Positions 1 through 10,387 of a stretch of DNA of 64,000 nt are shown here, piece after piece. The notes beneath the pieces are model-generated. The model worked only from the letters and a program-made list of their open reading frames with translations. It was not told where the DNA came from and made no database searches. The position numbers were made by a program, and so were the translations under genes. This stretch comes from Abditibacteriota bacterium (GTDB lineage: Bacteria; Armatimonadota; UBA5829): NCBI GenBank assembly GCA_017552965.1, contig JAFZNQ010000117.1, positions 1,319-65,318 of the forward strand, read 5' to 3'. Position 1 is the stretch's first letter; every line of letters starts with the position of its first letter.

Positions 1-291
1 GTAAAGGGAGGGCACGGCGTCAATGACGCCAACGACTTCCTCTTCGGACCGGACGGCGGCTGCTGGTTCGAGGGAACGCGGATAGACAACCCCAATACTC
101 ACGGGACCGGGTGCACTCTGTCCTCTGCCATTTGCGCCGATCTGGCCAAGGGCTTCGGACTCGCGGAGAGCATACAGATGGCCAAGAGCTACGTGTCCGG
201 CGCTCTGGGAGCCATGCTGGACCTGGGCCATGGCAAGGGTCCCGTGCGCCACAACTTCGACCTCTCCGGCAAATACGCCGCCCGGGCATAG
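1..291 (+). CDS. thiD: hydroxymethylpyrimidine/phosphomethylpyrimidine kinase ThiD, C-terminal part (5' end outside window)
   Basis: Frame-1 translation ...GTGCTLSSAICADLAKGF...AKSYVSGALGAMLDLGHGKGPVRHNF... matches the ThiD C-terminus; stop TAG 289-291 is followed by a terminator hairpin. Confidence 0.65.
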   Translation, partial: VKGGHGVNDANDFLFGPDGGCWFEGTRIDNPNTHGTGCTLSSAICADLAKGFGLAESIQMAKSYVSGALGAMLDLGHGKGPVRHNFDLSGKYAARA

Positions 292-304
292 CAGACGAAA
301 TAAT

Positions 305-334
305 CAGCCGGCCTCGGGCCGGCTGTCTGTTTTG
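305..334. terminator. rho-independent terminator between convergent thiD and the HIRAN operon (probably bidirectional)
   Basis: cagccggcc-tcg-ggccggctg stem followed by tctgtttt. Confidence 0.6.
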
Positions 335-368
335 ATGCGGTGATCTGCCGCAAAGGATGCGGAGGTCT

Positions 369-767
369 TCAAAAGTCCACCAGGTATATGCCTATGGCGA
401 TCTTTGTATAGGTGCCCTGTTTTTCGACGCCCGTGATCCTGGCTGCCAGGAGCTTGCCTGCGTCCATGAGCCGCGAAAAGATGACGTTGTCTTTTTCGGG
501 CACGTAGCCCAGCTTTTTGCCGCTGTCCGTCAGGACCAGGATAGCCTTGGCGTCGTATTTGTTGTCTTCTCTCTGCAGAGTCAGCTTGTCTCCGGTCCTG
601 ATGGTATCCAGCACGCTCTTGTCCTTCAGATGGGAGGTGCCCGCCACGAAGGTGTCAAAGAGGTGTATCTCCTCTATCAGGGGCTTGAGCAGCTCGCCCA
701 GGCCTTTTTCTTCTATGACCGTAACCAGGGAGCTCTCAGGGTTTTGCTTGGCCAGCTTGTCGGACAT
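369..767 (-). CDS. HIRAN domain protein (132 aa)
   Basis: LFDTFVAGTSHLKD...LTLQREDNKYDAKAILVLTDSGKKLGYVPEKDNVIFSRLMDAGKLLAARITGV aligns residue by residue with the HLTF/Rad5 HIRAN domain (LQR-NN-YD-NAI-V...G...G...MD....A...GV); last gene of a 3-gene minus-strand operon. Confidence 0.6.
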   Translation of the reverse strand: MSDKLAKQNPESSLVTVIEEKGLGELLKPLIEEIHLFDTFVAGTSHLKDKSVLDTIRTGDKLTLQREDNKYDAKAILVLTDSGKKLGYVPEKDNVIFSRLMDAGKLLAARITGVEKQGTYTKIAIGIYLVDF

Positions 768-770
768 TTG

Positions 771-1529
771 TTATCCTCCTTGATCCTGCAGTCTGTCTAT
801 CACCTGCTGCAGCTCTTCCGCATGCCTGAGATATGCTTCTGTTTCTTCCTTCAGCTCTGCGGTCTTGTTTTCCGTTTCCTCCGGATCCTCGATGATATAG
901 CGCAGGATCCAGGGCTCCGTGGTCATGATCTCTTCTATCTCTGCCCTCAGCTCGATGATCCTGCCCTTTATGTCGGGGATGTCGATCTGCAGTCCGTCCC
1001 TGCCCATATCCGTCAACAGCCTGTTTGCCAGTATCTCCAGCTCACTGAGCAGCTTGGCGTCATTGGCGTAGTAGGCCTCTGTTATGCTCAGCCACAGCTC
1101 CTTCAGGGGTCCGTCGGATCCTGTCTCGCGGCATATATCGGGATGGAGACGCTTTGCCAAGCGCCGGTAGATCTGCTTGCTCTTTTCCACGTCCTCCGCG
1201 GAGGACCGCTCCGCTTTTGCGGCCCGGGCTGCATCTTCCTGCATCTGCAGCAGTCTGTCCCGGTACACCTCCATCTCCTTTTGGATCCGGGCCAGCATTT
1301 CCTTCCTGTCCGGCTGCTCGCCCCGGTTGAGGGCTGCCTGGATAAAGGCGATGATCTTTTTGCACCTGATACATTCCACCTTTGCCCGGTAGTTCTTGAC
1401 CATCAGATCGCCGAACAGCTGCAGATACTCGATGCGTATGGAGACCGCTTCCTTTTTCAGAGCGTCTCTTTTGACCAGCAGGTTCGTGTATTCGAGAGTG
1501 TCCGGATCGGAGGCTTTGACTATGTTCAT
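771..1529 (-). CDS. J-domain (DnaJ-like, HPD motif) coiled-coil protein; start taken at the internal ATG (MNIVKASDPD)
   Basis: QIYRRLAKRLHPDICRETGSDGPLKELWLSITEAYYANDAKL is a helix II-HPD-helix III J-domain signature; the rest is charged and coiled-coil-like; start ATG overlaps the upstream gene's stop (ATGA); the track ORF starts 99 nt further upstream at a non-ATG codon. Confidence 0.5.
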   Translation of the reverse strand: MNIVKASDPDTLEYTNLLVKRDALKKEAVSIRIEYLQLFGDLMVKNYRAKVECIRCKKIIAFIQAALNRGEQPDRKEMLARIQKEMEVYRDRLLQMQEDAARAAKAERSSAEDVEKSKQIYRRLAKRLHPDICRETGSDGPLKELWLSITEAYYANDAKLLSELEILANRLLTDMGRDGLQIDIPDIKGRIIELRAEIEEIMTTEPWILRYIIEDPEETENKTAELKEETEAYLRHAEELQQVIDRLQDQGG

Positions 1530-2389
1530 TGGTCTATCCCGTAAACTGTGATATATTCGTAAAGGGCGGTGATGGGCTCGCCCTCTATCTCTGCCTTGGC
1601 GAAAAAGTCGTCTATGGTGCGGAACCACCTGTCTCCGAGGCGTATCCCCAGTCCGTCGCCGTCGGGGACTGCTTCCGCTTCATAGTCCTTACCGCCATAG
1701 CGGAGCAGCGCCTTTGCGGGGGAGGCGAACACGTGATACAGGTCGTATATGTCCGCGTTCCGGGGATCAAAGGGGCGGAGGGCGTAGATGCCCTCTATCA
1801 GCCATTTCATGATGGTCAGGTTGCCGAAAAAAGGGTTGCGGGCTATCCTCTCCGCCAGGACTCCCCTGGCCGTATCCCGGAGCTCCAGGGCTTCGGCGGT
1901 CCTGCCCTCTTTGTCGTATATCCCGGCCAGACGGGAATAGATCTCCGGCAGGTGTTCGCCGGGCTTTTTGTAAAGGTCTTTGATGATGGACGCGTATTTG
2001 TCATAGTCCCGCTCTACCCAGTAGCCGTTTTTGTACATATCGGCCACCTTGTAGGCCGCCGCAGTGTCACCCATTTTGGCCGCCCTGTCAAAGTAATAAA
2101 AGGCCTTTTCGTAGTTCTTTTCCCCGGTCCTGCCGTAGTACCAGATATAGCCCAGATCCGAGATGGCGTATATGTTGTCGTATTCGGCCGCCTGCTCGTA
2201 ATACTTCAGGGCCAGGTCAAACAACCGCTGTCTGTAGTAGTGGGCTCCCAGCTCCACCATGCAGTTGGGATTCTCGGTCTTCTCTATAAGGAAGCCCATA
2301 GCTTCGGTGAACATAAAGGAGTCTTCTTCCGAGGGATTGGAGAGATGATAGAATCGTCTGCGTATTTTTTCGGCTTCGCGAATGGTCAT
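1526..2389 (-). CDS. Sel1/TPR-like repeat protein (287 aa), first gene of the operon
   Basis: Repeated A-x-x-Y-x-x-A-A-x-x-G motifs (KAFYYFDRAAKMGDTAAAYKVADMYKNG etc.) typical of Sel1 repeats; RBS AAGGAGG 6 nt before the ATG. Confidence 0.55.
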   Translation of the reverse strand: MTIREAEKIRRRFYHLSNPSEEDSFMFTEAMGFLIEKTENPNCMVELGAHYYRQRLFDLALKYYEQAAEYDNIYAISDLGYIWYYGRTGEKNYEKAFYYFDRAAKMGDTAAAYKVADMYKNGYWVERDYDKYASIIKDLYKKPGEHLPEIYSRLAGIYDKEGRTAEALELRDTARGVLAERIARNPFFGNLTIMKWLIEGIYALRPFDPRNADIYDLYHVFASPAKALLRYGGKDYEAEAVPDGDGLGIRLGDRWFRTIDDFFAKAEIEGEPITALYEYITVYGIDQ

Positions 2390-2446
2390 ATGTTTCCTCC
2401 TTAATAGCTGTTGCCAGGCGCCGGCATTGCGATGGGTCCGGGCTGT

Positions 2447-2478
2447 AAAAAAGCTCCTTTGCCGGACGGCAAAGGAGC
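2447..2478 (-). terminator. rho-independent terminator directly 3' of tRNA-fMet (minus strand)
   Basis: Minus-strand gctcctttgcc-gtcc-ggcaaaggagc hairpin followed by TTTTTT. Confidence 0.6.
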
Positions 2479-2486
2479 GTGTGTTC

Positions 2487-2562
<76 letters not shown>

Positions 2563-2573
2563 TTGACATTTAT

Positions 2574-2602
2574 ATTATACCACAGAAGGCGCGGTTTGTA
2601 AA
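2574..2602 (-). promoter_or_regulatory. sigma-70 type promoter for tRNA-fMet
   Basis: Minus strand TTTACA-17 nt-TATAAT (with TGg extension) ending about 11 nt before the tRNA 5' end. Confidence 0.55.
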
Positions 2603-2637
2603 GAGGCCCGGGGCAAATAGCGAAAAAAGAGGACCGT

Positions 2638-2667
2638 TTGACACCCCGCCCGCTTTTGGGGTATAAT
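2638..2667 (+). promoter_or_regulatory. consensus sigma-70 promoter for the MtrA/TS-like fusion gene
   Basis: TTGACA-17 nt-TATAAT about 40 nt upstream of RBS AAGGAGAG and ATG 2708. Confidence 0.6.
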
Positions 2668-2707
2668 ATATATACAAACTAATATATTTGACTGCAAGGA
2701 GAGTATT

Positions 2708-5065
2708 ATGGACTTTGAGCCTTTGTTCTACGCAGACAAGCTGCGCCTCGTCAACCCTTCCGGATGCATAGGGGTAGTGTGTCTGTGGACCAAACAGGAA
2801 CATGCTCTGAAAAAGCTGGCCGAGGCGGGGATCGATCTGGGGCCCTCGTCAAAGGTGGCCCTGATAGGCAACCTGTACGGCAACGGCATTTCCGAGCTGG
2901 CTGCCAATCTGATGTATAACCCCCAGATACAGGGGTTGCTCATATGCGGCTCCAACATGTCCGGCTCTGCCGAGGACCTGATAGCCCTGTACACAGACGG
3001 CATACGCGAGACCGAGCAGCTGGGCTGCAGGGTCAGGGTCATAGCCGGCAGGGACCGGGTGGTGAACAACGCCCTGGATATGTCCCTCGCAAGTCAAAAG
3101 CCGGTCCTCTGCTACGCCGGAGACTTCTCTTCTCCCGACACTCTGACAAAAGCCGCGGATTTCGTCAACGGCTTCACACCCTCTCCCGTGACCTCCGAAC
3201 GTATAGCCATCACCATGGAAAAGCCTGCGGTGACAGTGTGTCCCACGGAGCCCCGCAGCCTGGTCATCACCCGGGACGACCCTCTGAGCGCCTGGCGGGA
3301 GCTGGTGTTCTGCCTCAACAGGTTCGGGGTCCCCGTGATGCTCAGAAAAGGGGAGCGGCGGGAGCTGCAAAACGTGAAGGTGGTCATCCGGGACTTTGAC
3401 GTCGATGAGGAAGAGCTGAAGAAATACGGCTTCAGGCTCTCCGAGCTGGAGGACTACCGCCAAAAGCTGCTCTCCGGCTATCTGCCTCCGGACCAGGAAT
3501 ACACCTACGGCAACCGCATCAGGGAATACTTCGGCTTTGACTTTCTGGAGAACACCATAGACAAGCTGTCGGCCTATGTGAATGACCGGGACTGCTATCT
3601 GTCCCTGTGGGACCCCAAGCGCGACACCTACGGCAAAGACGCTCCCTGCATGGTGAGCCTCTTTTTCAGAGTCTTTCAGGGCGAGCTGACCCTCACTGCG
3701 TTTTTCCGCACCCACAACGGGATGGACGCTTGGCTGAAAAACGCCTGGGGCATCAGGGGCCTGCAGGAATACGTGGGGGGCAGGCTGGGAATGAAATGCG
3801 GCCCCCTGACCGTCATCAGCCACAGCATCAGCATCGACACCACCAGAGGCGATTTTGCCCAGAGGGTGGCTGCCGGCAAGCAGTTTGCCCTGCACACCGA
3901 CTACAACGGTCAGGTGGAGATAGGCATAGAGGATGGCGAGATAGTGGTCACCCACGCCCGCCCGGACGGGACTCCCATCAACGTTTACCGGGGGACCGTG
4001 ACCGAGCGGCTCCAGCATGAGCTGTATCGGGACCGGGTCCTGTCGGACATAGAGCACGCCATCTTCGTGGGCAGAGAGCTGGAAAAGGCCAAGGCGGTCC
4101 TGGATGACCGCATCTCCGGGGAGGAGCGGCCCGCGGCGGCTCCCCGGCGGACCCGGCAGCTCTCCACCGGCTGTCCCACGGAGCCCCGGAGCCTGGTTAT
4201 CACCCGGGACGACCCTCTGAGCGCCTGGAAGGAGCTGGTGTTCTGCCTCAACAGGTTCGGAGTCCCCGTCATGCTCAGAAAAGGGGAGCGGAGTGAGCTG
4301 CAGAACGTAAAGGTGGTCATACGGGATTTTGAGATCAGCGAGGACAAGCTTGCCGGCTATGGCTTCAGCATGTCCGAGCTGGAGGACTACCGCAGAGAGC
4401 TCTTCCGGGAGGAGCTTCCGGAGGGAGCCGAATACACCTGCGGCAACCGCATCAGGGAATACTACGGCTTTGACTTTTTGCAGTGTGTCACAGACAAGCT
4501 GTCCGTGTATTCCAACGACCGGGACTGCTATCTGTCCCTGTGGGACCCCAAAAAGGACACCTTCGGCAGGGACGTCCCCAGTCTGGTGAGCCTGTTTTTC
4601 CGGGTCTTTCAGGGCGAGCTGACCCTGACTGCCTCATACCGCAACCACAACGTGACGGACGCCTGGCTGAAAAACGTGTACGGCCTCAGAGGCCTGCAGG
4701 AATACGTGGGAAAAAAGCTGGAGCTTGAGTGCGGCCCTATGACCGTGATCAGCATGTCTGTCAGCATCGACGCCAAAAGGAGCGACTTTGCCCGGAGAGT
4801 GGCCGGAGAAAAGGGCTTTGCCCTGAATATGGACTACAACGGCCAGGTGCTCATCATGCCGGTGGACGGTGAGATAGTGGTCACCCACACCCGCCCGGAC
4901 GGGACTCCCATCAGGGTGTACAAGGGGACGGACACGGCTATGCTCCAGCATGAGCTGGCCCGGGACAACGTCCTGTCGGACATCAATCACGCCATCTACA
5001 TAGGCAGAGAGCTGGAAAGAGCCCGGGCGGCCCTGGAAAAGGGCGCGGAATACGTCCAGGCATAG
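2708..5065 (+). CDS. fusion protein: N-terminal MtrA-like (tetrahydromethanopterin S-methyltransferase subunit A-like, corrinoid-binding fold) domain followed by two tandem thymidylate-synthase-like domains (785 aa)
   Basis: aa 15-120 (NLYGNGISELAANLMYNPQIQGLLICGSNMSGSAEDLIALYTDGI) aligns with archaeal MtrA (NLGIEKV..NPNIR.LL..GSEV.GH..G.SL.AL..NGI). Each repeat carries TS motifs YGNRIREYFG..D.L.NTIDKL....DRDCYLSLWDPK.D....APCMVSLFFRVFQGELTLTAFFRTHNGMD...N (catalytic Cys, Arg, Asn conserved). Confidence 0.55.
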   Translation: MDFEPLFYADKLRLVNPSGCIGVVCLWTKQEHALKKLAEAGIDLGPSSKVALIGNLYGNGISELAANLMYNPQIQGLLICGSNMSGSAEDLIALYTDGIRETEQLGCRVRVIAGRDRVVNNALDMSLASQKPVLCYAGDFSSPDTLTKAADFVNGFTPSPVTSERIAITMEKPAVTVCPTEPRSLVITRDDPLSAWRELVFCLNRFGVPVMLRKGERRELQNVKVVIRDFDVDEEELKKYGFRLSELEDYRQKLLSGYLPPDQEYTYGNRIREYFGFDFLENTIDKLSAYVNDRDCYLSLWDPKRDTYGKDAPCMVSLFFRVFQGELTLTAFFRTHNGMDAWLKNAWGIRGLQEYVGGRLGMKCGPLTVISHSISIDTTRGDFAQRVAAGKQFALHTDYNGQVEIGIEDGEIVVTHARPDGTPINVYRGTVTERLQHELYRDRVLSDIEHAIFVGRELEKAKAVLDDRISGEERPAAAPRRTRQLSTGCPTEPRSLVITRDDPLSAWKELVFCLNRFGVPVMLRKGERSELQNVKVVIRDFEISEDKLAGYGFSMSELEDYRRELFREELPEGAEYTCGNRIREYYGFDFLQCVTDKLSVYSNDRDCYLSLWDPKKDTFGRDVPSLVSLFFRVFQGELTLTASYRNHNVTDAWLKNVYGLRGLQEYVGKKLELECGPMTVISMSVSIDAKRSDFARRVAGEKGFALNMDYNGQVLIMPVDGEIVVTHTRPDGTPIRVYKGTDTAMLQHELARDNVLSDINHAIYIGRELERARAALEKGAEYVQA
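3239..5062 (+). repeat. tandem duplication, two units of about 933 bp each encoding one TS-like domain; about 90% nt identity over the first 160 nt compared
   Basis: 3239-3400 vs 4172-4335 are nearly identical at nucleotide level (tgtcccacggagccccg.agcctggt.atcacccgggacgaccctctgagcgcctgg...). Confidence 0.7.
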
Positions 5066-5069
5066 AGAG

Positions 5070-5097
5070 GCAGCCGGCAGGGCCGGCTGCTTTTTTT
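5070..5097. terminator. bidirectional rho-independent terminator
   Basis: gcagccggc-agg-gccggctgc followed by TTTTTTT, between convergent genes. Confidence 0.7.
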
Positions 5098-5105
5098 CTG
5101 TGACG

Positions 5106-5714
5106 TCAGAGTTCTATGGCCACGGCCCGCACCGGCGAGCTGTCGCAGGGGATGCTCAGGGGAAAGGCCGCAAAGACAAAGCGCGCGCCTGCCAGCTCCC
5201 GGGGGATGACCAGCCCCTCCACCAGAGGTATATCTTTTTCCTGCAGGGCGTTGTGACAGCGAAAGCCCGGCAGGGAGTCCACCGAGGGGACGTCCGTGGC
5301 CACCAGTCTGAAGCCCCGGTCCAGTATATACCTGCACAGCGCGTCGGAAAAGCCCGGAAAATCCAGCAAAAAGCTCTTGCCGTCCCGGGTCTTCCTCTGC
5401 CAGAAGGTGGCCACCACCAGTATCCCGCAGCCCTCCGCCTCGCAGTCCGGCGCCTGTATCAGTCCGTCCCTTATCTCCGGAGCCACGCACAGGGCTTCTC
5501 CATAGAAGGTGGAAAGGGGGAAGGAATCGATCTCCCTGCCGCCGGGAAAGGCGTGCCGGGGAGCGTCTATGTGGGTGCCTATATGGCTGCCCGTCTGCAG
5601 ATAGGTGGTCTGGGGGCAGGCCTGGGTCACGGTCATGGAGAGGGGATCGTCGCCGGGATAGGTCAGGGTGTCCGGCCCCAGAGGCTGCGAAAGATCGGTG
5701 ATTTTCATATGCAC
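5106..5714 (-). CDS. putative cyclase family protein (arylformamidase/kynurenine formamidase-like)
   Basis: GTHIDAPRHAF motif and overall length (202 aa) typical of the putative cyclase family. Confidence 0.65.
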   Translation of the reverse strand: MHMKITDLSQPLGPDTLTYPGDDPLSMTVTQACPQTTYLQTGSHIGTHIDAPRHAFPGGREIDSFPLSTFYGEALCVAPEIRDGLIQAPDCEAEGCGILVVATFWQRKTRDGKSFLLDFPGFSDALCRYILDRGFRLVATDVPSVDSLPGFRCHNALQEKDIPLVEGLVIPRELAGARFVFAAFPLSIPCDSSPVRAVAIEL

Positions 5715-5822
5715 GTCCTGTCAAAAGATATTCACCTCTATTATACCACAGCTTTCCGGGCGGGAGCTCCGGCCGGGGCCAAAACTATTTTGACGCCGCC
5801 TCAAAAAAAAATAGTATTACGG

Positions 5823-5851
5823 TTGAAATAGACGCGTGCGGGTGGTATAAT
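5823..5851 (+). promoter_or_regulatory. sigma-70 promoter upstream of rpsA
   Basis: TTGAAA-17 nt-TATAAT; roughly 85-nt leader. Confidence 0.5.
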
Positions 5852-5935
5852 AATAATGTGTGTGTTCGCAGTACAACGGAATACATTATCAGATAGTTTG
5901 GGGCGATAAGGTCCGATTGAGGAGTTGTAGGTTAA

Positions 5936-7180
5936 ATGCCTGTAGTAGAAAACGATATCAACATGGAAGACGTAATGGCTACTCTTCCTACCGAAGACAA
6001 GCAGTTAAGAAAGGGCGAGCTCGTAGAGGGCGAGGTGGTCCAGGTCAACAAGGACGAGATCCTGATCAACCTGACCAGCTATTCTCTCAAGTCCGAAGCG
6101 AGAATGCCTCTGGATCAGCTGACATCCGACAGCACTGTCACGAGCTGCGAGGAGCTGGTCAAGGTCGGCGACATCATCAAGGCCAGAGTCATAGTGCCTT
6201 CCGGCAAGAACGGCATCATTCTGTCCAAGAAGAGCGCGGACTACGATCTTCGCTGGGATGAGATCAAGGATATATACGAAGAGGGCAGGATAGTCAAGGC
6301 TGTCGCCAAGGAAGCCGTCAAGGGCGGTCTGGTGGTGGACATACTGGGCTACAGCGCCTTTTGTCCCGCATCTCAGGTGGCCGGGAAGTATGAAAACTTT
6401 GCCAAGCATGCCGGAGAGGACATGGAGTTCAAGGTCATAGAGATCGACAAGGCAAAGAGAAGGATCATCCTGTCCAACCGCAAGGTGGTCAACGAGCGCA
6501 GACAGGCTGCCAAGCGGGCCTTCTGGGACAACATCCAGGTGGGCGAAGAGCGCGAAGGCACTGTCAAGAGCGTGCTTCCCTACGGCGTGTTTGTGGATAT
6601 CGGCGGCTTTGAAGGCATGCTCCATATCAGCGAAATGAGCTGGAACCGCATCTCCGATCCTTCCAAGATGTTCAAGGTGGGAGACAAGGTCAGAGTCATA
6701 GTGCTCAGCTTTGACGAGACAAAGCAGAGAGTGTCTCTGGGCCACAAGCAGCTGCTGCCCGATCCCTGGCGCTTCGTCAAGGAAAACATCGTGGAGGGCG
6801 CCGAGTTCACCGGCAAGATCACCAGAATAGTGGCCAAGGCCGCTTTTATGGATATGGGCAACGGTTTCGAGGGCCTTATCCCTATCTCCGAGATGGCCAA
6901 CGAGCGCATCGAGACCCCCGACAAGGTATTGTCCGAGGGTGAGGAAAAGACCGTGCTGGTCAAGCAGGTCATCGACAAGGACCGCAAGGTGATACTCTCC
7001 ATCAAGGCCCTTCTGCCGGCTCCCGAGCGTCCTCAGAGAAGGCACGCCGCCGTCAGCGACAACGATGATTATGACAAGGACTTCGGATACGCCGGCCACG
7101 AAGAGGGCGGAGCATCCACCAGCATCGGAGATCTCTATGGAGATCTGCTCAAATCTACAGGCGAAGACGAAGAAGGATAA
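5936..7180 (+). CDS. rpsA: 30S ribosomal protein S1 (four S1 domains, Firmicutes-type short form) with acidic C-terminal tail
   Basis: Four repeated S1 OB-fold motifs (GE.V.G.V..V...G.FVD.GG..G..HISE...); RBS GGAG upstream. Confidence 0.8.
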   Translation: MPVVENDINMEDVMATLPTEDKQLRKGELVEGEVVQVNKDEILINLTSYSLKSEARMPLDQLTSDSTVTSCEELVKVGDIIKARVIVPSGKNGIILSKKSADYDLRWDEIKDIYEEGRIVKAVAKEAVKGGLVVDILGYSAFCPASQVAGKYENFAKHAGEDMEFKVIEIDKAKRRIILSNRKVVNERRQAAKRAFWDNIQVGEEREGTVKSVLPYGVFVDIGGFEGMLHISEMSWNRISDPSKMFKVGDKVRVIVLSFDETKQRVSLGHKQLLPDPWRFVKENIVEGAEFTGKITRIVAKAAFMDMGNGFEGLIPISEMANERIETPDKVLSEGEEKTVLVKQVIDKDRKVILSIKALLPAPERPQRRHAAVSDNDDYDKDFGYAGHEEGGASTSIGDLYGDLLKSTGEDEEG

Positions 7181-7269
7181 TCCATACGTCAAACAGGAGT
7201 GCTGTGTTATCACGGCACTCTTTTATTAAATCACGACACAGCCGAGCCCGGCAACAAGGACAGACACAA

Positions 7270-8652
7270 ATGAAAGGCATTTATTCGAAAGCGGCCATTA
7301 CCCGGAAGCAACAGTATCCCGCAGGCGACGTGCGCAATTATGCTCACCTGGTGCGAAAAGAGACCTGGCTGGAAAAGGAATTCCGCACCGGCTACTACGT
7401 GGACCGGGTCCAATTTACCGAGGGTGAGATATGGACCGACGCCATACAGGCGGCTCTCGACGAAAACAAGCGCGTTTACGTCCCCTATTTCCCCAACAGA
7501 CTGTACATAGACAAGACCCTTTATATCGGGTCCGGCACCACCCTTGAGGTGTGCGAGGGCACCGTGATCTCCCTGAAGCCGGACAGCAACTGCTGTATGC
7601 TGACCAACAAGAACTTCAAGGTGAGCCGCAGCGTCTTCGAGTTTGACTGCCCCGATACGGATATCTGCATCACAGGGGGGACCTGGTCCCTGACCAACAA
7701 TGGCAGCTACGGCGGCAACGGCAACGAATCCGGCAAAGTCCGGGACAGCGCCGGGGTGGAGCACAACGCCTTCTCGGTGATGAGCTTTACCAACGTCAAG
7801 GGGCTGCGGATAAGCAACCTCACCTTTTACGACATTACCCCCTTTGCCCTTTACGTCAGCGGCATAGAAGACTTTGATATAGAGAATCTGAAGTTTGACA
7901 AGTGCTACCGGGACGGCGTGCACGTCTGCGGCCCCGCCTCCGGGGGCAGGATACGCAACCTGACGGGCGTCACAGGAGACGACTTTGTGGCCCTCAACGC
8001 CTACGACGACTTTGGCTGCGCCCTGAGCCTGGGCAAGATAGACCACGTGCTGGTGGAAAACATAGCCTCCACTCCCGGATGGATGTGGAGCGAGAACAGG
8101 CTCCTGGCGGGAATATTCATTGCGGAGGACGGCAGGGAGATAGACTGCAGCGTGGAAGACTGCACCTTCCGCAACTGCCGGGGCTTCCACACCTACAAGG
8201 GATATCTGCAGGCCAATCTGGTGCCCGCTCCAGTTGACCGGCCGGACCGGTCCGGGCATATGGACAACCTGACCTTTGAAAACATATTCGTGGACTATAT
8301 ACAGCCCTCTGACTACTATACGGTCAAGCGCTCCGCCTTTGAAATGGGCACCAGCTGCAACAACTTTACGTTTCGCAATATATACTTCAGCTTCCCTCTG
8401 GGGGACCCCGAATACGGCGACTGGAGCTGCGTGACCTTTGGCCCCTCCTTCGCTGCTTTTCTGGATTCCAGAGGCATTATGCCCAGCAGGAATATCAGGT
8501 TTGAAAACGTGTTCCACCGGGTCGGCGGACGATACGTGGAGGCCGATCCTTCCCTTTGCGCCAGAGTGGTCACTGCCGAAGAGGACGGCGAGGTCATAGG
8601 CAAGGGCACTGCAACAGAAATCTATTATAACGAGGAAGATAAAAATGAGTAA
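7270..8652 (+). CDS. right-handed parallel beta-helix repeat protein (pectin-lyase fold, GH28-like), no signal peptide
   Basis: Repeated ...GL.I.N....D.....V....D..IEN..F motifs and a Gly/Asn-rich turn (NNGSYGGNGNESG); start moved to the internal ATG (MKGIYSK); stop overlaps the downstream gene's start. Confidence 0.45.
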   Translation: MKGIYSKAAITRKQQYPAGDVRNYAHLVRKETWLEKEFRTGYYVDRVQFTEGEIWTDAIQAALDENKRVYVPYFPNRLYIDKTLYIGSGTTLEVCEGTVISLKPDSNCCMLTNKNFKVSRSVFEFDCPDTDICITGGTWSLTNNGSYGGNGNESGKVRDSAGVEHNAFSVMSFTNVKGLRISNLTFYDITPFALYVSGIEDFDIENLKFDKCYRDGVHVCGPASGGRIRNLTGVTGDDFVALNAYDDFGCALSLGKIDHVLVENIASTPGWMWSENRLLAGIFIAEDGREIDCSVEDCTFRNCRGFHTYKGYLQANLVPAPVDRPDRSGHMDNLTFENIFVDYIQPSDYYTVKRSAFEMGTSCNNFTFRNIYFSFPLGDPEYGDWSCVTFGPSFAAFLDSRGIMPSRNIRFENVFHRVGGRYVEADPSLCARVVTAEEDGEVIGKGTATEIYYNEEDKNE

Positions 8653-9700
8653 AAAATTCAGGATAGGCTTGGTGGGAACAGGCTCCATCTGCAATTACGC
8701 CCACATACCCGCTCTGAAAAACATGCCCGAGATCGAGATAGCCGCTATCTGCGACATCGATCCCAAGGCGCTGGACAACACCAAGAAGAACCTGGGCAAC
8801 GACACTATACCCGCGTTCCTCAGCCACAAGGACATGCTGGGCGCCCGTCTGGATCTGGATGCGGTGCACATCTGCACCCCCAACTACGCCCACTCGCCCA
8901 TAGCGGTGGACTTTCTGGGAGCGGATATACACGTATTCTGCGAGAAGCCCATTTCCATGACCCGGGCCGAGGCTCAGAAGATGCTGGACGCCGAGAAGAA
9001 GTCCAAGGCCGTGCTGTCCGTGGGACACTGCTGGCGCTACAACAACGAAATGGTGGCTCTGAAGAAGTTCGTGGACGCAGGCCGGCTGGGTGAGATATAC
9101 TACGCCAAGGCCATATCCAACCGCCGCAGAGGCATCCCCGGCTGGGGTGTGTTCTGCGACCTGGAGAAGCAGGGCGGCGGCTGTATGATAGACTGCGGCT
9201 GCCACGCTCTGGACACTGCTCTCTGGCTCACCGGCAACCCCAAGCCCGTGTCCGTCAGCGGATGCAGCTACTCCAAGCTGGGCAACAATAAGGATATCGC
9301 CGATATGGGAGGCGACTGGGCCTGGGACAGGGACACCTTCAACATAGAGGACTTCTGCACCGGTCTGGTGAAGTTTGAGAACGGTATGACCATGTATATC
9401 GAATCCAGCTTTGCCGCCCACATAGAGAAGGATTACTTCGGCGTGCAGCTCATAGGCGACAAGGGCGGAGCCACCACGGCCCCCCTGAAGATATACACCG
9501 ACGAGAACAAGGTGATGCTCAACATCACTCCCGCCCATCTTCAGCCCTCTTCGCCCCACGCAGACGAGATCAAGGACTTTTACACCGCTCTGGCTGAAGG
9601 CGGGGAAATACCCATCAAAGCCTGGCAGGCCTACGACGTGATCAGCATCATAGACGCTATATACGAGTCCGGCCGCACCGGCGAGACCATCAGGCTCTGA
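8645..9700 (+). CDS. Gfo/Idh/MocA family NAD(P)-dependent oxidoreductase
   Basis: N-terminal Rossmann IGLVGTGSI..YAHIPAL and central EKP motif; translationally coupled to the beta-helix gene (ATGAGTAA overlap). Confidence 0.75.
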   Translation: MSKKFRIGLVGTGSICNYAHIPALKNMPEIEIAAICDIDPKALDNTKKNLGNDTIPAFLSHKDMLGARLDLDAVHICTPNYAHSPIAVDFLGADIHVFCEKPISMTRAEAQKMLDAEKKSKAVLSVGHCWRYNNEMVALKKFVDAGRLGEIYYAKAISNRRRGIPGWGVFCDLEKQGGGCMIDCGCHALDTALWLTGNPKPVSVSGCSYSKLGNNKDIADMGGDWAWDRDTFNIEDFCTGLVKFENGMTMYIESSFAAHIEKDYFGVQLIGDKGGATTAPLKIYTDENKVMLNITPAHLQPSSPHADEIKDFYTALAEGGEIPIKAWQAYDVISIIDAIYESGRTGETIRL

Positions 9701-9742
9701 CGGGCTTACGATCGGGATCTGGAAAAGCATCCCGGAAAATGT

Positions 9743-9779
9743 GTTCTGCCCGGACTGTCCGGGCAGAACAGTTTTTTTT
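9743..9779. terminator. rho-independent terminator
   Basis: gttctgcccgg-actgt-ccgggcagaac followed by TTTTTTTT. Confidence 0.7.
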
Positions 9780-9801
9780 GTCGCAAGTCACACGATCCGT
9801 A

Positions 9802-10221
9802 TCACCTGACAATAAACACTTCGGAGGCGTTGTTTGTGGGGTCGTGGGAATCGCCAAAGAATTTCTTTTCCATACGAAAGCCTGCGAACTCAATTATGAT
9901 GATCGTCATATTCCCCGCGTCTACCCAGGTGTATTCTGTGTTGGAGGTTCTGTGCTGTGTTACATCGCAGGGGCCCAACAGGGCCTCCACATCCCCGAGG
10001 GTCATGGCGCCTGTGATCTTCAGATAGTTGTCTTTGGTGACGAGCGGATTCTTGGTGGTCACGCACGTCATGCTGCCCTGAGCTGCTCCGATCGCTGAGG
10101 TTCGTTCTTCTTCAAGGACTTTGGCGCGGACGTGTAAGATGACGCCGCACAGTATCAAAAGCGCGATAGCTATTGCTGCTCCGACGCCGATAAAAATACG
10201 CTTCTTTTTCGCTAAATCCAT
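9802..10221 (-). CDS. small membrane-anchored hypothetical protein (N-terminal TM helix)
   Basis: MDLAKKKRIFIGVGAAIAIALLILCGVIL is a TM anchor, followed by a soluble domain; no recognisable family. Confidence 0.45.
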   Translation of the reverse strand: MDLAKKKRIFIGVGAAIAIALLILCGVILHVRAKVLEEERTSAIGAAQGSMTCVTTKNPLVTKDNYLKITGAMTLGDVEALLGPCDVTQHRTSNTEYTWVDAGNMTIIIIEFAGFRMEKKFFGDSHDPTNNASEVFIVR

Positions 10222-10387
10222 ATCGCTTGCTCTTCTCCCTGATTATTATAATTGCTGCAGAGATGTATATCTCTTCATGTACTTATTATATCATTTTTTT
10301 TTTCTGAAATCAAGCGGCGGCGTTTTGGGCGATGAGGTAATGTCATACGCCTGCGAAAGACAGCCGGGCGCACACGGCTCCTTTCTA

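Follow-up and report, generated by a model that had tools for sequence, protein, structure and literature searches.

What brings a HIRAN gene, a J-domain gene and a Sel1-repeat gene together, head to tail, beside an initiator tRNA gene? The question is raised by a 64,000-nucleotide (nt) stretch of an Abditibacteriota genome (assembly GCA_017552965.1, contig JAFZNQ010000117.1, positions 1,319 to 65,318), called the window below, near one end of which lie three minus-strand genes designated A (Sel1), B (J domain) and C (HIRAN); comparison loci carry labels such as L001. The three genes form one operon that recurs beyond chance and is not a coincidental neighbourhood. With our own open reading frame (ORF) calling and iterative hidden Markov model searches, A-B-C was found on one strand in 63 of 86 independent loci, most of the others being loci that run into contig ends or in which A was not recognised, and loci retrieved through C alone likewise show A-B-C. 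The junctions are tight across the family: A and B overlap by 4 nt in 22 of 61 loci and are separated by a gap of zero or less in 42 of these 61, and the gap between B and C is zero or less in 57/71. In many loci the same-strand run is limited to A-B-C.

A distant B subfamily (L094-L096), only 26% identical, keeps all three domains in the order J-HIRAN-Sel1. In L094 (about 3600-10370) the run consists of a J protein of 295 amino acids (aa), a HIRAN protein (130 aa), a Sel1 protein (447 aa), a 333-aa protein and a Sel1-like protein (478 aa), after which comes a protein exceeding 744 aa that carries a further HIRAN domain; the operon of this subfamily is divergent from an RtcR-type sigma-54 activator. 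The existence of two independent gene orders, together with a gene fusion described below, argues for physical and functional coupling of the three genes.

The distribution of the family is sparse. Among 185,579 genomes, each representing one species, a pattern scan detected B relatives in 92, and 79 loci were retrieved. Nearly all carriers are rumen or gut Bacillota (Lachnospiraceae, other Clostridia, Erysipelotrichaceae, Anaerovoracaceae, Sarcina, Faecalicoccus), and one belongs to the Abditibacteriota; at E ≤ 1e-30 the B family comprises 309 clusters (50% identity). A scan of 2.9 million IMG/VR viral contigs returned one triad locus (L090), in which the usual A-B-C is followed by a 340-aa unannotated ORF at the position usually taken by a WYL regulator (see below), an arrangement that makes L090 probably cellular DNA. 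A tblastn search of B against phage and plasmid collections gave no match, and the origin of the triad appears to be cellular rather than phage or plasmid. Full-text searches of the accessible literature found no description of a J-domain/HIRAN/Sel1 operon.

The three proteins and their setting in the window

The relevant features of the window are the following.

369-767, minus strand: gene C, a standalone HIRAN protein of 132 aa (Pfam HIRAN)
771-1529, minus strand: gene B, an all-helical protein of 252 aa with an embedded J domain, starting at the ATG that matches homologue N-termini
1008-1208, minus strand: J-domain-like region of B (residues 108-174), with the HPD motif at nt 1137-1145
1526-2389, minus strand: gene A, a Sel1-like-repeat protein of 287 aa (Pfam Sel1, AlphaFold model)
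2396-2401, minus strand: AGGAGG ribosome-binding site, 6 nt 5' of the A start codon (direct reading)
2453-2478, minus strand: intrinsic terminator of the tRNA gene, an 11-bp stem plus TTTTTT that separates the tRNA from A (inverted-repeat and terminator scans)
2487-2562, minus strand: tRNA-Met (CAT), initiator type (ARAGORN; Rfam tRNA, 60 bits)
298-332, no strand: GC-rich hairpin between thiD and gene C, an inverted repeat that is terminator-like in both directions
1-291, plus strand: 3' end of thiD, the last 96 codons plus TAG in the frame-1 translation, convergent with the triad (context only)

Gene A matches the Pfam Sel1 family (PF08238) at 37.8 bits against a cut-off of 30.7, and tetratricopeptide repeat (TPR) models match it too. 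Its AlphaFold (AF2) model, with a predicted local distance difference test (pLDDT) score of 93.6, shows a Sel1-like solenoid over residues 1-220 and a small C-terminal beta domain at residues 225-286 (nt 1532-1717), and in Foldseek comparisons the model matches Sel1-repeat crystal structures with probability 1.0 (E 9e-7). A full-length A homologue (293 aa, 56% identical) also occurs alone, without B or C, at 5001-5882 of L097/L098. There it lies at the edge of a conjugative element carrying a relaxase, a NikA-like protein, a DnaG-type zinc-ribbon/DUF3849 protein, a giant SNF2 methylase-helicase and a WHH toxin with its SUKH immunity protein. This solitary A might serve the mobile element as a decoy or counter-measure directed at the triad, or it might reflect independent use of the scaffold.

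The J domain of B is recognised through its family. Taken singly, the window protein scores 18.4 bits with Pfam DnaJ (PF00226), below the 27.8 cut-off, and the precomputed PF00226 matches of several homologues are only weak or faint. A profile built from 24 B homologues retrieved J domains in 32 of 33 PDB rows (best E 4.2e-5), the best sequence match being the J domain of CbpA (2kqx, 3ucs; E about 4e-5). The protein carries the motif YRRLAKRLHPD and a helix-III signature L..LW...AY..N; the pattern Y-R-x-L-A-x3-HPD and the named helix-III residues are invariant, H129, P130 and D131 behind a basic helix II being so in all 24 sequences, and HPD is kept in 247/253 B relatives. A structural search of BFVD, in which three of the four best matches to B are phage 'J domain-containing proteins', gave weak similarities (template modelling (TM) score about 0.27). 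Family profile, HPD conservation and BFVD matches together uphold the assignment despite the sub-threshold Pfam score.

The AF2 model of B (pLDDT 90.3) is all-helical, with the J domain embedded between long helical hairpins. Helices span residues 111-128, 140-154 and 158-174 of the J region, with no separate helix I, and judging from the model the N-terminal coiled hairpin may stand in for that helix. Foldseek found no significant global match to the model in the PDB, the helical hairpins outside the J domain being unmatched. The alignments of DnaJ equivalog models are confined to the J region, with scores of 13-18 bits where the cut-offs are 291-502, and the C-terminal substrate-binding domains of DnaJ and CbpA are missing (NF007618, 18 bits against a cut-off of 403). 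At 5262-6035 of L008, B is readable only as a 185-aa ORF, and the near-identical metagenome contig L087 (266-1039) has a full 257-aa gene; the short version is either an assembly frameshift or a recent pseudogene.

Gene C scores 53.5 bits with Pfam HIRAN (PF08797; cut-off 24.7), the domain occupying residues 36-123 (nt 399-662) behind a conserved N-terminal extension (KPL..EI.LFD). Its family profile finds 3k2y as the best PDB match (E 5e-11), with the HIRAN chains of HLTF as the only others. The HLTF sequence 'NPYDKNAI' aligns with 'NK(F/Y)D.NAI' of the C family, in which D72 never varies among 35 sequences and F/Y71 reaches at least 90% conservation. This pair aligns with Y93-D94 of HLTF, which we take to be the aromatic-Asp pair of the HIRAN 3'-end pocket. 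C also matches the PADLOC candidate PDC-M03B, but solely over the C-terminal HIRAN half of that protein (E 4e-15), its N-terminal half being unmatched.

A preliminary description, made from the letters of the window, had placed three minus-strand genes encoding Sel1-repeat, J-domain and HIRAN proteins between thiD and an initiator tRNA gene, and this layout stands. The ORFs, the ARAGORN and Rfam calls and the PDB match of the ThiD C-terminus (96 aa at 1-288, plus strand; phosphomethylpyrimidine kinases aligned to their C-termini, E 2.5e-19) agree with it; the Sel1 assignment is borne out by the Pfam score and the Foldseek match, the internal J domain by the family-level evidence, and the HIRAN assignment by the Pfam score, 3k2y and the motif alignment. 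The overlapping stop and start codons that it had reported at both junctions are found at one: ATGA at 1526-1529 contains both the stop of A and the start of B (the pair 1526/1529), whereas at the other (767/771) the B stop TAA (771-773) and the C ATG (765-767) are separated by 3 nt. The mechanical ORF of B extends to a GTG at 1628, and homologue N-termini set its start at the ATG at 1529.

The tRNA-Met is called an initiator because three G:C pairs adjoin its anticodon loop and because it has a C1.U72 mismatch, both features being read directly, and it was the sole match in an Rfam scan of positions 1-3000. Downstream of C, a terminator scan found a 9-pair stem at 305-325 on both strands. Since the stretch from the tRNA terminator to gene A showed no sigma-70-like promoter, the triad may rely on read-through or on an unrecognised promoter type. 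Back-to-back consensus promoters lie at 2574-2667, between the tRNA and a gene for a 785-aa protein: a perfect TTGACA-18-TATAAT on the plus strand (2638-2667) and, for the tRNA, a minus-strand TTTACA-17-TATAAT with an extended TG (2602-2574). The 785-aa protein (2708-5065, plus strand) combines an MtrA-like N-terminus with two tandem methanogen-type thymidylate-synthase-like domains (TIGR03283, 202 bits), each followed by PterinBD-DUF4346. It is 89-92% conserved in three Abditibacteriota species and represents a folate/pterin enzyme architecture unusual in a bacterium.

Flanks, regulators and interchangeable partners

The surroundings of the triad are almost never conserved, 495 neighbouring proteins falling into 424 clusters. 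The only recurrent neighbour is an HTH-WYL-WCX regulator, present at 15 loci, mostly directly after C and sometimes upstream (L031, L073). That this gene merely belongs to a downstream defence system was considered; it holds for L057, where it is brxR of BREX, and was rejected elsewhere. The WYL gene was retained as linked to the triad because it is followed in most of the other loci by unrelated genes (lipase-like, PGM, ABC transporter, glycosyltransferase) and also occurs upstream. Among 54 upstream regions, none contained a LexA (Cheo) box, which speaks against SOS control, and a k-mer search of the same regions enriched only words from the start of the A coding sequence.

A minority of loci have direct same-strand neighbours with a defence connection. 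These include a full-length Druantia DruE, a BREX block (brxR-A-B-C-pglX), type IV restriction enzymes of two kinds (PLD-DEAD-DUF3427 and GmrSD-like), a UvrD helicase resembling GajB, and AbiEii, as well as an IetA-like protein and PDC-S01. ADP-ribose hydrolases of three unrelated folds are also linked to the module: a microbial PARG directly after C, a Macro-NADAR protein directly after C in L001, and, in L088/L089 (6001-8204), an ADP-ribosylglycohydrolase (ARH/ARG) that forms the N-terminal part of a 606-aa fusion with B, the next gene being HIRAN and a Sel1 gene being absent. The L088/L089 contigs are Bacteroidota-like (a GldH lipoprotein is encoded nearby), and a radical-SAM-like gene lies just upstream of the fusion.

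Partners of B can also be exchanged. In L073 (1838-4340), a WYL gene and B are followed by an overlapping RNase_T/DEDD 3'-5' exonuclease gene in place of HIRAN; in L070 (9968-11793), a NERD nuclease takes the same place; and in L064 (9052-9828) the order is NERD-B-C, HIRAN being retained and the nuclease lying upstream of B in the Sel1 position. B thus emerges as the constant hub of the module, and its partners are interchangeable units acting on DNA ends. A further variant was found in Erysipelotrichaceae, including the cultured Faecalicoccus pleomorphus DSM 20574 (L027/L028, 8757-9935), where a 392-aa DUF349 repeat protein upstream of B replaces Sel1 and a short Sel1 protein (about 130 aa) follows C.

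A long same-strand block, L001 (1-12777), comes from a very common gut species, its protein being listed in 439 blocks of the assembly collection. It reads WYL, a zinc-ribbon UvrD-like helicase, two small ORFs, A-B-C and Macro-NADAR-DUF6508, and continues with a LexA-like S24 repressor, a Y-family polymerase and a YpsA/DprA-like gene; the whole looks like a DNA-damage or conflict island. An OGG glycosylase gene lies near the triad in L005.

The tRNA-fMet site in Abditibacteriota

Three Abditibacteriota species could be compared, one being that of the window and one that of L008/L087, whose copy is inverted. In all three the triad lies directly beyond the tRNA-fMet terminator, the same tRNA adjoining it in L008, L087, L091 and L092. 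Compensatory changes preserve the terminator in L008/L087, and the nucleotide alignment breaks off immediately past it. The distal flank is different in each species: thiD, a thioredoxin-like gene or a hybrid histidine kinase. Flanking ThyA-like and S1 proteins are 88-92% identical among the three species and the neighbouring cyclase 66-70%, compared with 59-66% for A, 46-62% for B and 64-71% for C, an identity gap indicating that the triad evolves much faster than the adjacent ThyA-like and S1 genes. The inverted triad of L008 is 69/58/74% identical (A/B/C) to a Bacillota triad and 59/50/71% to the window triad, and triads have been exchanged across phyla. In view of the inverted copy, its different ancestry and the differing distal flanks, the tRNA-fMet site probably behaves as a recombination hotspot at which the cassette was flipped or replaced.

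The proposal that the cassette sits at a classic tRNA integration site survives in part. The end of homology beyond the tRNA terminator, the variable distal flank and the inverted copy agree with it, but a repeat of the tRNA 3' end near 300-370 was not found, no repeat family joining 2487-2510 with 290-370. The segment contains no integrase or mobility gene, only A, B and C and then thiD. A compositional island was also considered and rejected, the triad having a host-like GC content (54.9% against 58.4% for the window) and the same being true of L091 and L008. Lacking a tRNA-3' repeat, an integrase and a compositional anomaly, the locus is not a classical island. A tRNA adjoins the triad in none of the 15 Bacillota or other non-Abditibacteriota loci checked, and no empty tRNA site was found among the Abditibacteriota relatives examined.

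As to whether the arrangement is a housekeeping one, synteny with tRNA-fMet extends to all three species, but synteny with thiD fails and no housekeeping annotation attaches to the genes. The earlier impression that this is not a housekeeping arrangement is supported by the patchy distribution, the unconserved flanks and the cross-phylum exchange.

Candidate roles and nearest known systems

The three genes form a self-contained, horizontally exchanged operon and, judging from homology and conservation, its products most likely work as one complex. C would bind free single-stranded DNA 3'-OH ends. B would act as the hub, its J domain docking through HPD on the host Hsp70 (DnaK) and triggering ATP hydrolysis, so that DnaK would clamp whatever is held beside the DNA end. 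A, with its Sel1 solenoid and beta domain, would serve as a protein-binding scaffold holding the client or other subunits. The module would be inducible, often under a WYL regulator, and its targets could be proteins at DNA ends, such as phage or plasmid replication or recombination intermediates, or proteins stalled or ADP-ribosylated on DNA. The outcome would be an anti-phage or anti-mobile-element device, or one that responds to genotoxic stress. The original suggestion of a stress/DNA-damage or phage-defence module that recruits DnaK fits the evidence, and a conflict or genotoxic-stress role is indicated by the variable location, the defence neighbours, the WYL control, the domain displacement, the fast evolution and the cross-phylum transfer. 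Among these roles an anti-phage or anti-mobile-element function is tentatively favoured, ahead of the two alternatives considered below, at somewhat less than an even chance.

A bolder version of this proposal, less likely but with a real chance, is that the triad represents a new class of immune or anti-mobile-element system whose output is chaperone action and not a nuclease or toxin. In this version HIRAN would sense the 3' ends of invader DNA, be they linear genome termini or rolling-circle or recombination intermediates. The J protein would then fire DnaK on Sel1-held proteins, dismantling or trapping the replication machinery of the invader or diverting DnaK from phages that need it, and the nuclease and ADP-ribose-hydrolase add-ons would be optional extensions.

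Several observations weigh against a defence role and its molecular basis. No nuclease, toxin, NADase or other effector can be recognised in the core triad, and the binding of A, B and C to one another, to DNA and to DnaK is predicted. The J domain of the window B falls below the Pfam cut-off and shows no clear helix I. PADLOC-DB v2.0 gave no match to B and only a chance-level PtuA match to A. Defence genes are directly adjacent in only about 6-8 of about 75 loci, a raw count taken without a genome-wide background, and many loci, the window included, lie among ordinary metabolic or housekeeping genes. Finally, the presence of the triad in every Abditibacteriota relative examined resembles a stable lineage trait more than a strain-variable island.

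The same components could instead help the cell to tolerate DNA damage or to rescue replication forks, immunity being no part of their task. In that case HIRAN would read 3' ends at gaps and at forks that have stalled or regressed; DnaK, brought in by the J protein, would remove or refold stalled proteins of the replisome or of repair; and a PafBC/DriD-type WYL switch would operate on the build-up of single-stranded DNA. This role agrees with the established activity of the HLTF HIRAN domain at stalled forks, the 15 loci with WYL-WCX regulators, the helicase, LexA-like repressor, Y-family polymerase and YpsA/DprA-like gene of L001, the glycosylase of L005 and the DEDD exonuclease that displaces HIRAN in L073. 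It is nonetheless unlikely, given the missing Cheo boxes, a divergence far above that of most flanking genes, and the Druantia, BREX and type IV restriction genes among direct neighbours. With carriers in only 92/185,579 species genomes, the triad is not a core repair function. Cassettes combining LexA and a Y-family polymerase, as in L001, are themselves typical mobile-element cargo. A counter-ADP-ribosylation function is less probable still. Here the J protein, DnaK and Sel1 would handle macromolecules ADP-ribosylated by an invader, and the linked hydrolases would strip the modification, possibly on DNA ends; the ARH/ARG fusion to B and the PARG and Macro-NADAR genes after C point in this direction, as does the accretion of WYL regulators, helicases and nucleases seen in published ARG-centric systems. 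The hydrolases, however, occur at only about 5 of about 75 loci, and none accompanies the window copy. Moreover, the published systems use other chaperones (vWA, SseB, TY-Chap), and in the paper describing them HIRAN appears only together with ARPP, while the terms 'J domain', 'DnaJ' and 'Sel1' are absent (PMC9503650).

The two remaining explanations concern the locus more than the function. That the triad is cargo of a classical integrase-driven island in the tRNA-fMet 3' end would account for its position right after the tRNA terminator, where synteny with relatives ends, and for the variable distal flank and the inverted copy of different ancestry; it is largely refuted as stated, and very improbable, with neither repeat nor mobility gene, a variable segment of three genes only that is bounded by thiD, a near-host GC content and the tRNA-free loci outside the Abditibacteriota. 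Chance adjacency of three unrelated genes, or an ordinary housekeeping co-chaperone, might be suggested by domains that are all common and individually unremarkable and by the housekeeping neighbours in the window. The conservation data refute it: gene order shared across phyla in most loci, a second gene order, fusions and family-wide start/stop overlaps leave it practically no likelihood.

If a defence or damage-response function proves true, chaperone recruitment to DNA ends would join the known prokaryotic conflict mechanisms, and a gene set common in rumen and human-gut Bacillota (>300 sequence clusters) would be accounted for. The tRNA-adjacent hotspot, for its part, presents a cassette that would have been swapped or inverted without an integrase. 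To our knowledge, hardly any specialised J protein directs Hsp70 to DNA in bacteria, the single example being CbpA, and 3'-end recognition at stalled forks by HLTF is the sole characterised role of a HIRAN domain. Prokaryotic HIRANs were called uncharacterised in a 2024 survey (PMC11090510). The operon offers a compact handle on both questions: its three proteins are small, point mutants suggest themselves (HPD, the HIRAN Asp), and several carriers are in culture, Sarcina sp. DSM 11001 and Faecalicoccus pleomorphus DSM 20574 among them.

The nearest known systems each share part of this design. CbpA of E. coli is a J-domain co-chaperone that binds curved DNA and is encoded in an operon with its modulator CbpM. 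The triad resembles this pair in coupling a J domain to DNA binding within a small operon that includes a partner protein. It differs in that B lacks the C-terminal substrate-binding domains and holds its J domain between long helical hairpins, DNA recognition is left to a separate HIRAN protein, and the Sel1 partner is unrelated to CbpM. With the HIRAN domain of HLTF/Rad5 and the bacterial lp_0118 (PDB 3k2y), C shares an above-cut-off HIRAN match and the conserved aromatic-Asp motif for DNA 3' ends. Unlike HLTF/Rad5, C is a standalone 132-aa protein with an N-terminal extension and neither SNF2 motor nor RING domain, and its partners are J and Sel1 proteins. The HipL/HipN kinase toxin-antitoxin families and PDC-M03 likewise employ HIRAN as an accessory, presumably DNA-end-sensing, domain of conflict systems, whereas the triad has no kinase or HipS, and A and B match no PADLOC model. 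In eukaryotes, co-chaperones with TPR and J modules (DNAJC3/p58IPK, DNAJC7/TPR2), like other class III J proteins, direct Hsp70 to a single site or client. As in these proteins, a helical-repeat binder of clients or partners is combined with a J domain that would fire Hsp70 locally, but in the triad the repeats, which are of the Sel1 subtype, reside on a polypeptide of their own, a sensor of nucleic-acid ends joins them, and no homology was detected beyond the domains.

A place for the Hsp70/J network in phage-host conflict is documented by the defence protein bNACHT25, whose phage sensing requires the DnaJ of the host (PMC12169576), and by the J-domain proteins encoded by jumbo phages (PMC7824862). 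Phage J proteins of similar size are the best BFVD matches to B, albeit weak ones; bNACHT25 depends on the housekeeping DnaJ, whereas the triad has a dedicated J protein in its operon. The predicted ARG-centric anti-ADP-ribosylation systems (Iyer, Burroughs, Anantharaman, Aravind 2022, section 3.8; PMC9503650) are similar in combining WYL and a chaperone component, in accreting Macro, NADAR, nuclease and helicase genes, in evolving rapidly and, through the ARG-B fusion, in gene content. They differ in that neither ARG nor a WYL or Nudix regulator is present at the window and ARG is absent from most loci, appearing only as the fusion in L088/L089, while HIRAN and Sel1 form a constant core of the triad and its chaperone element is a J domain that would borrow the host Hsp70. 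None of these nearest systems contains the triad, which is best described as a specialised J-domain co-chaperone system with novel targeting subunits.

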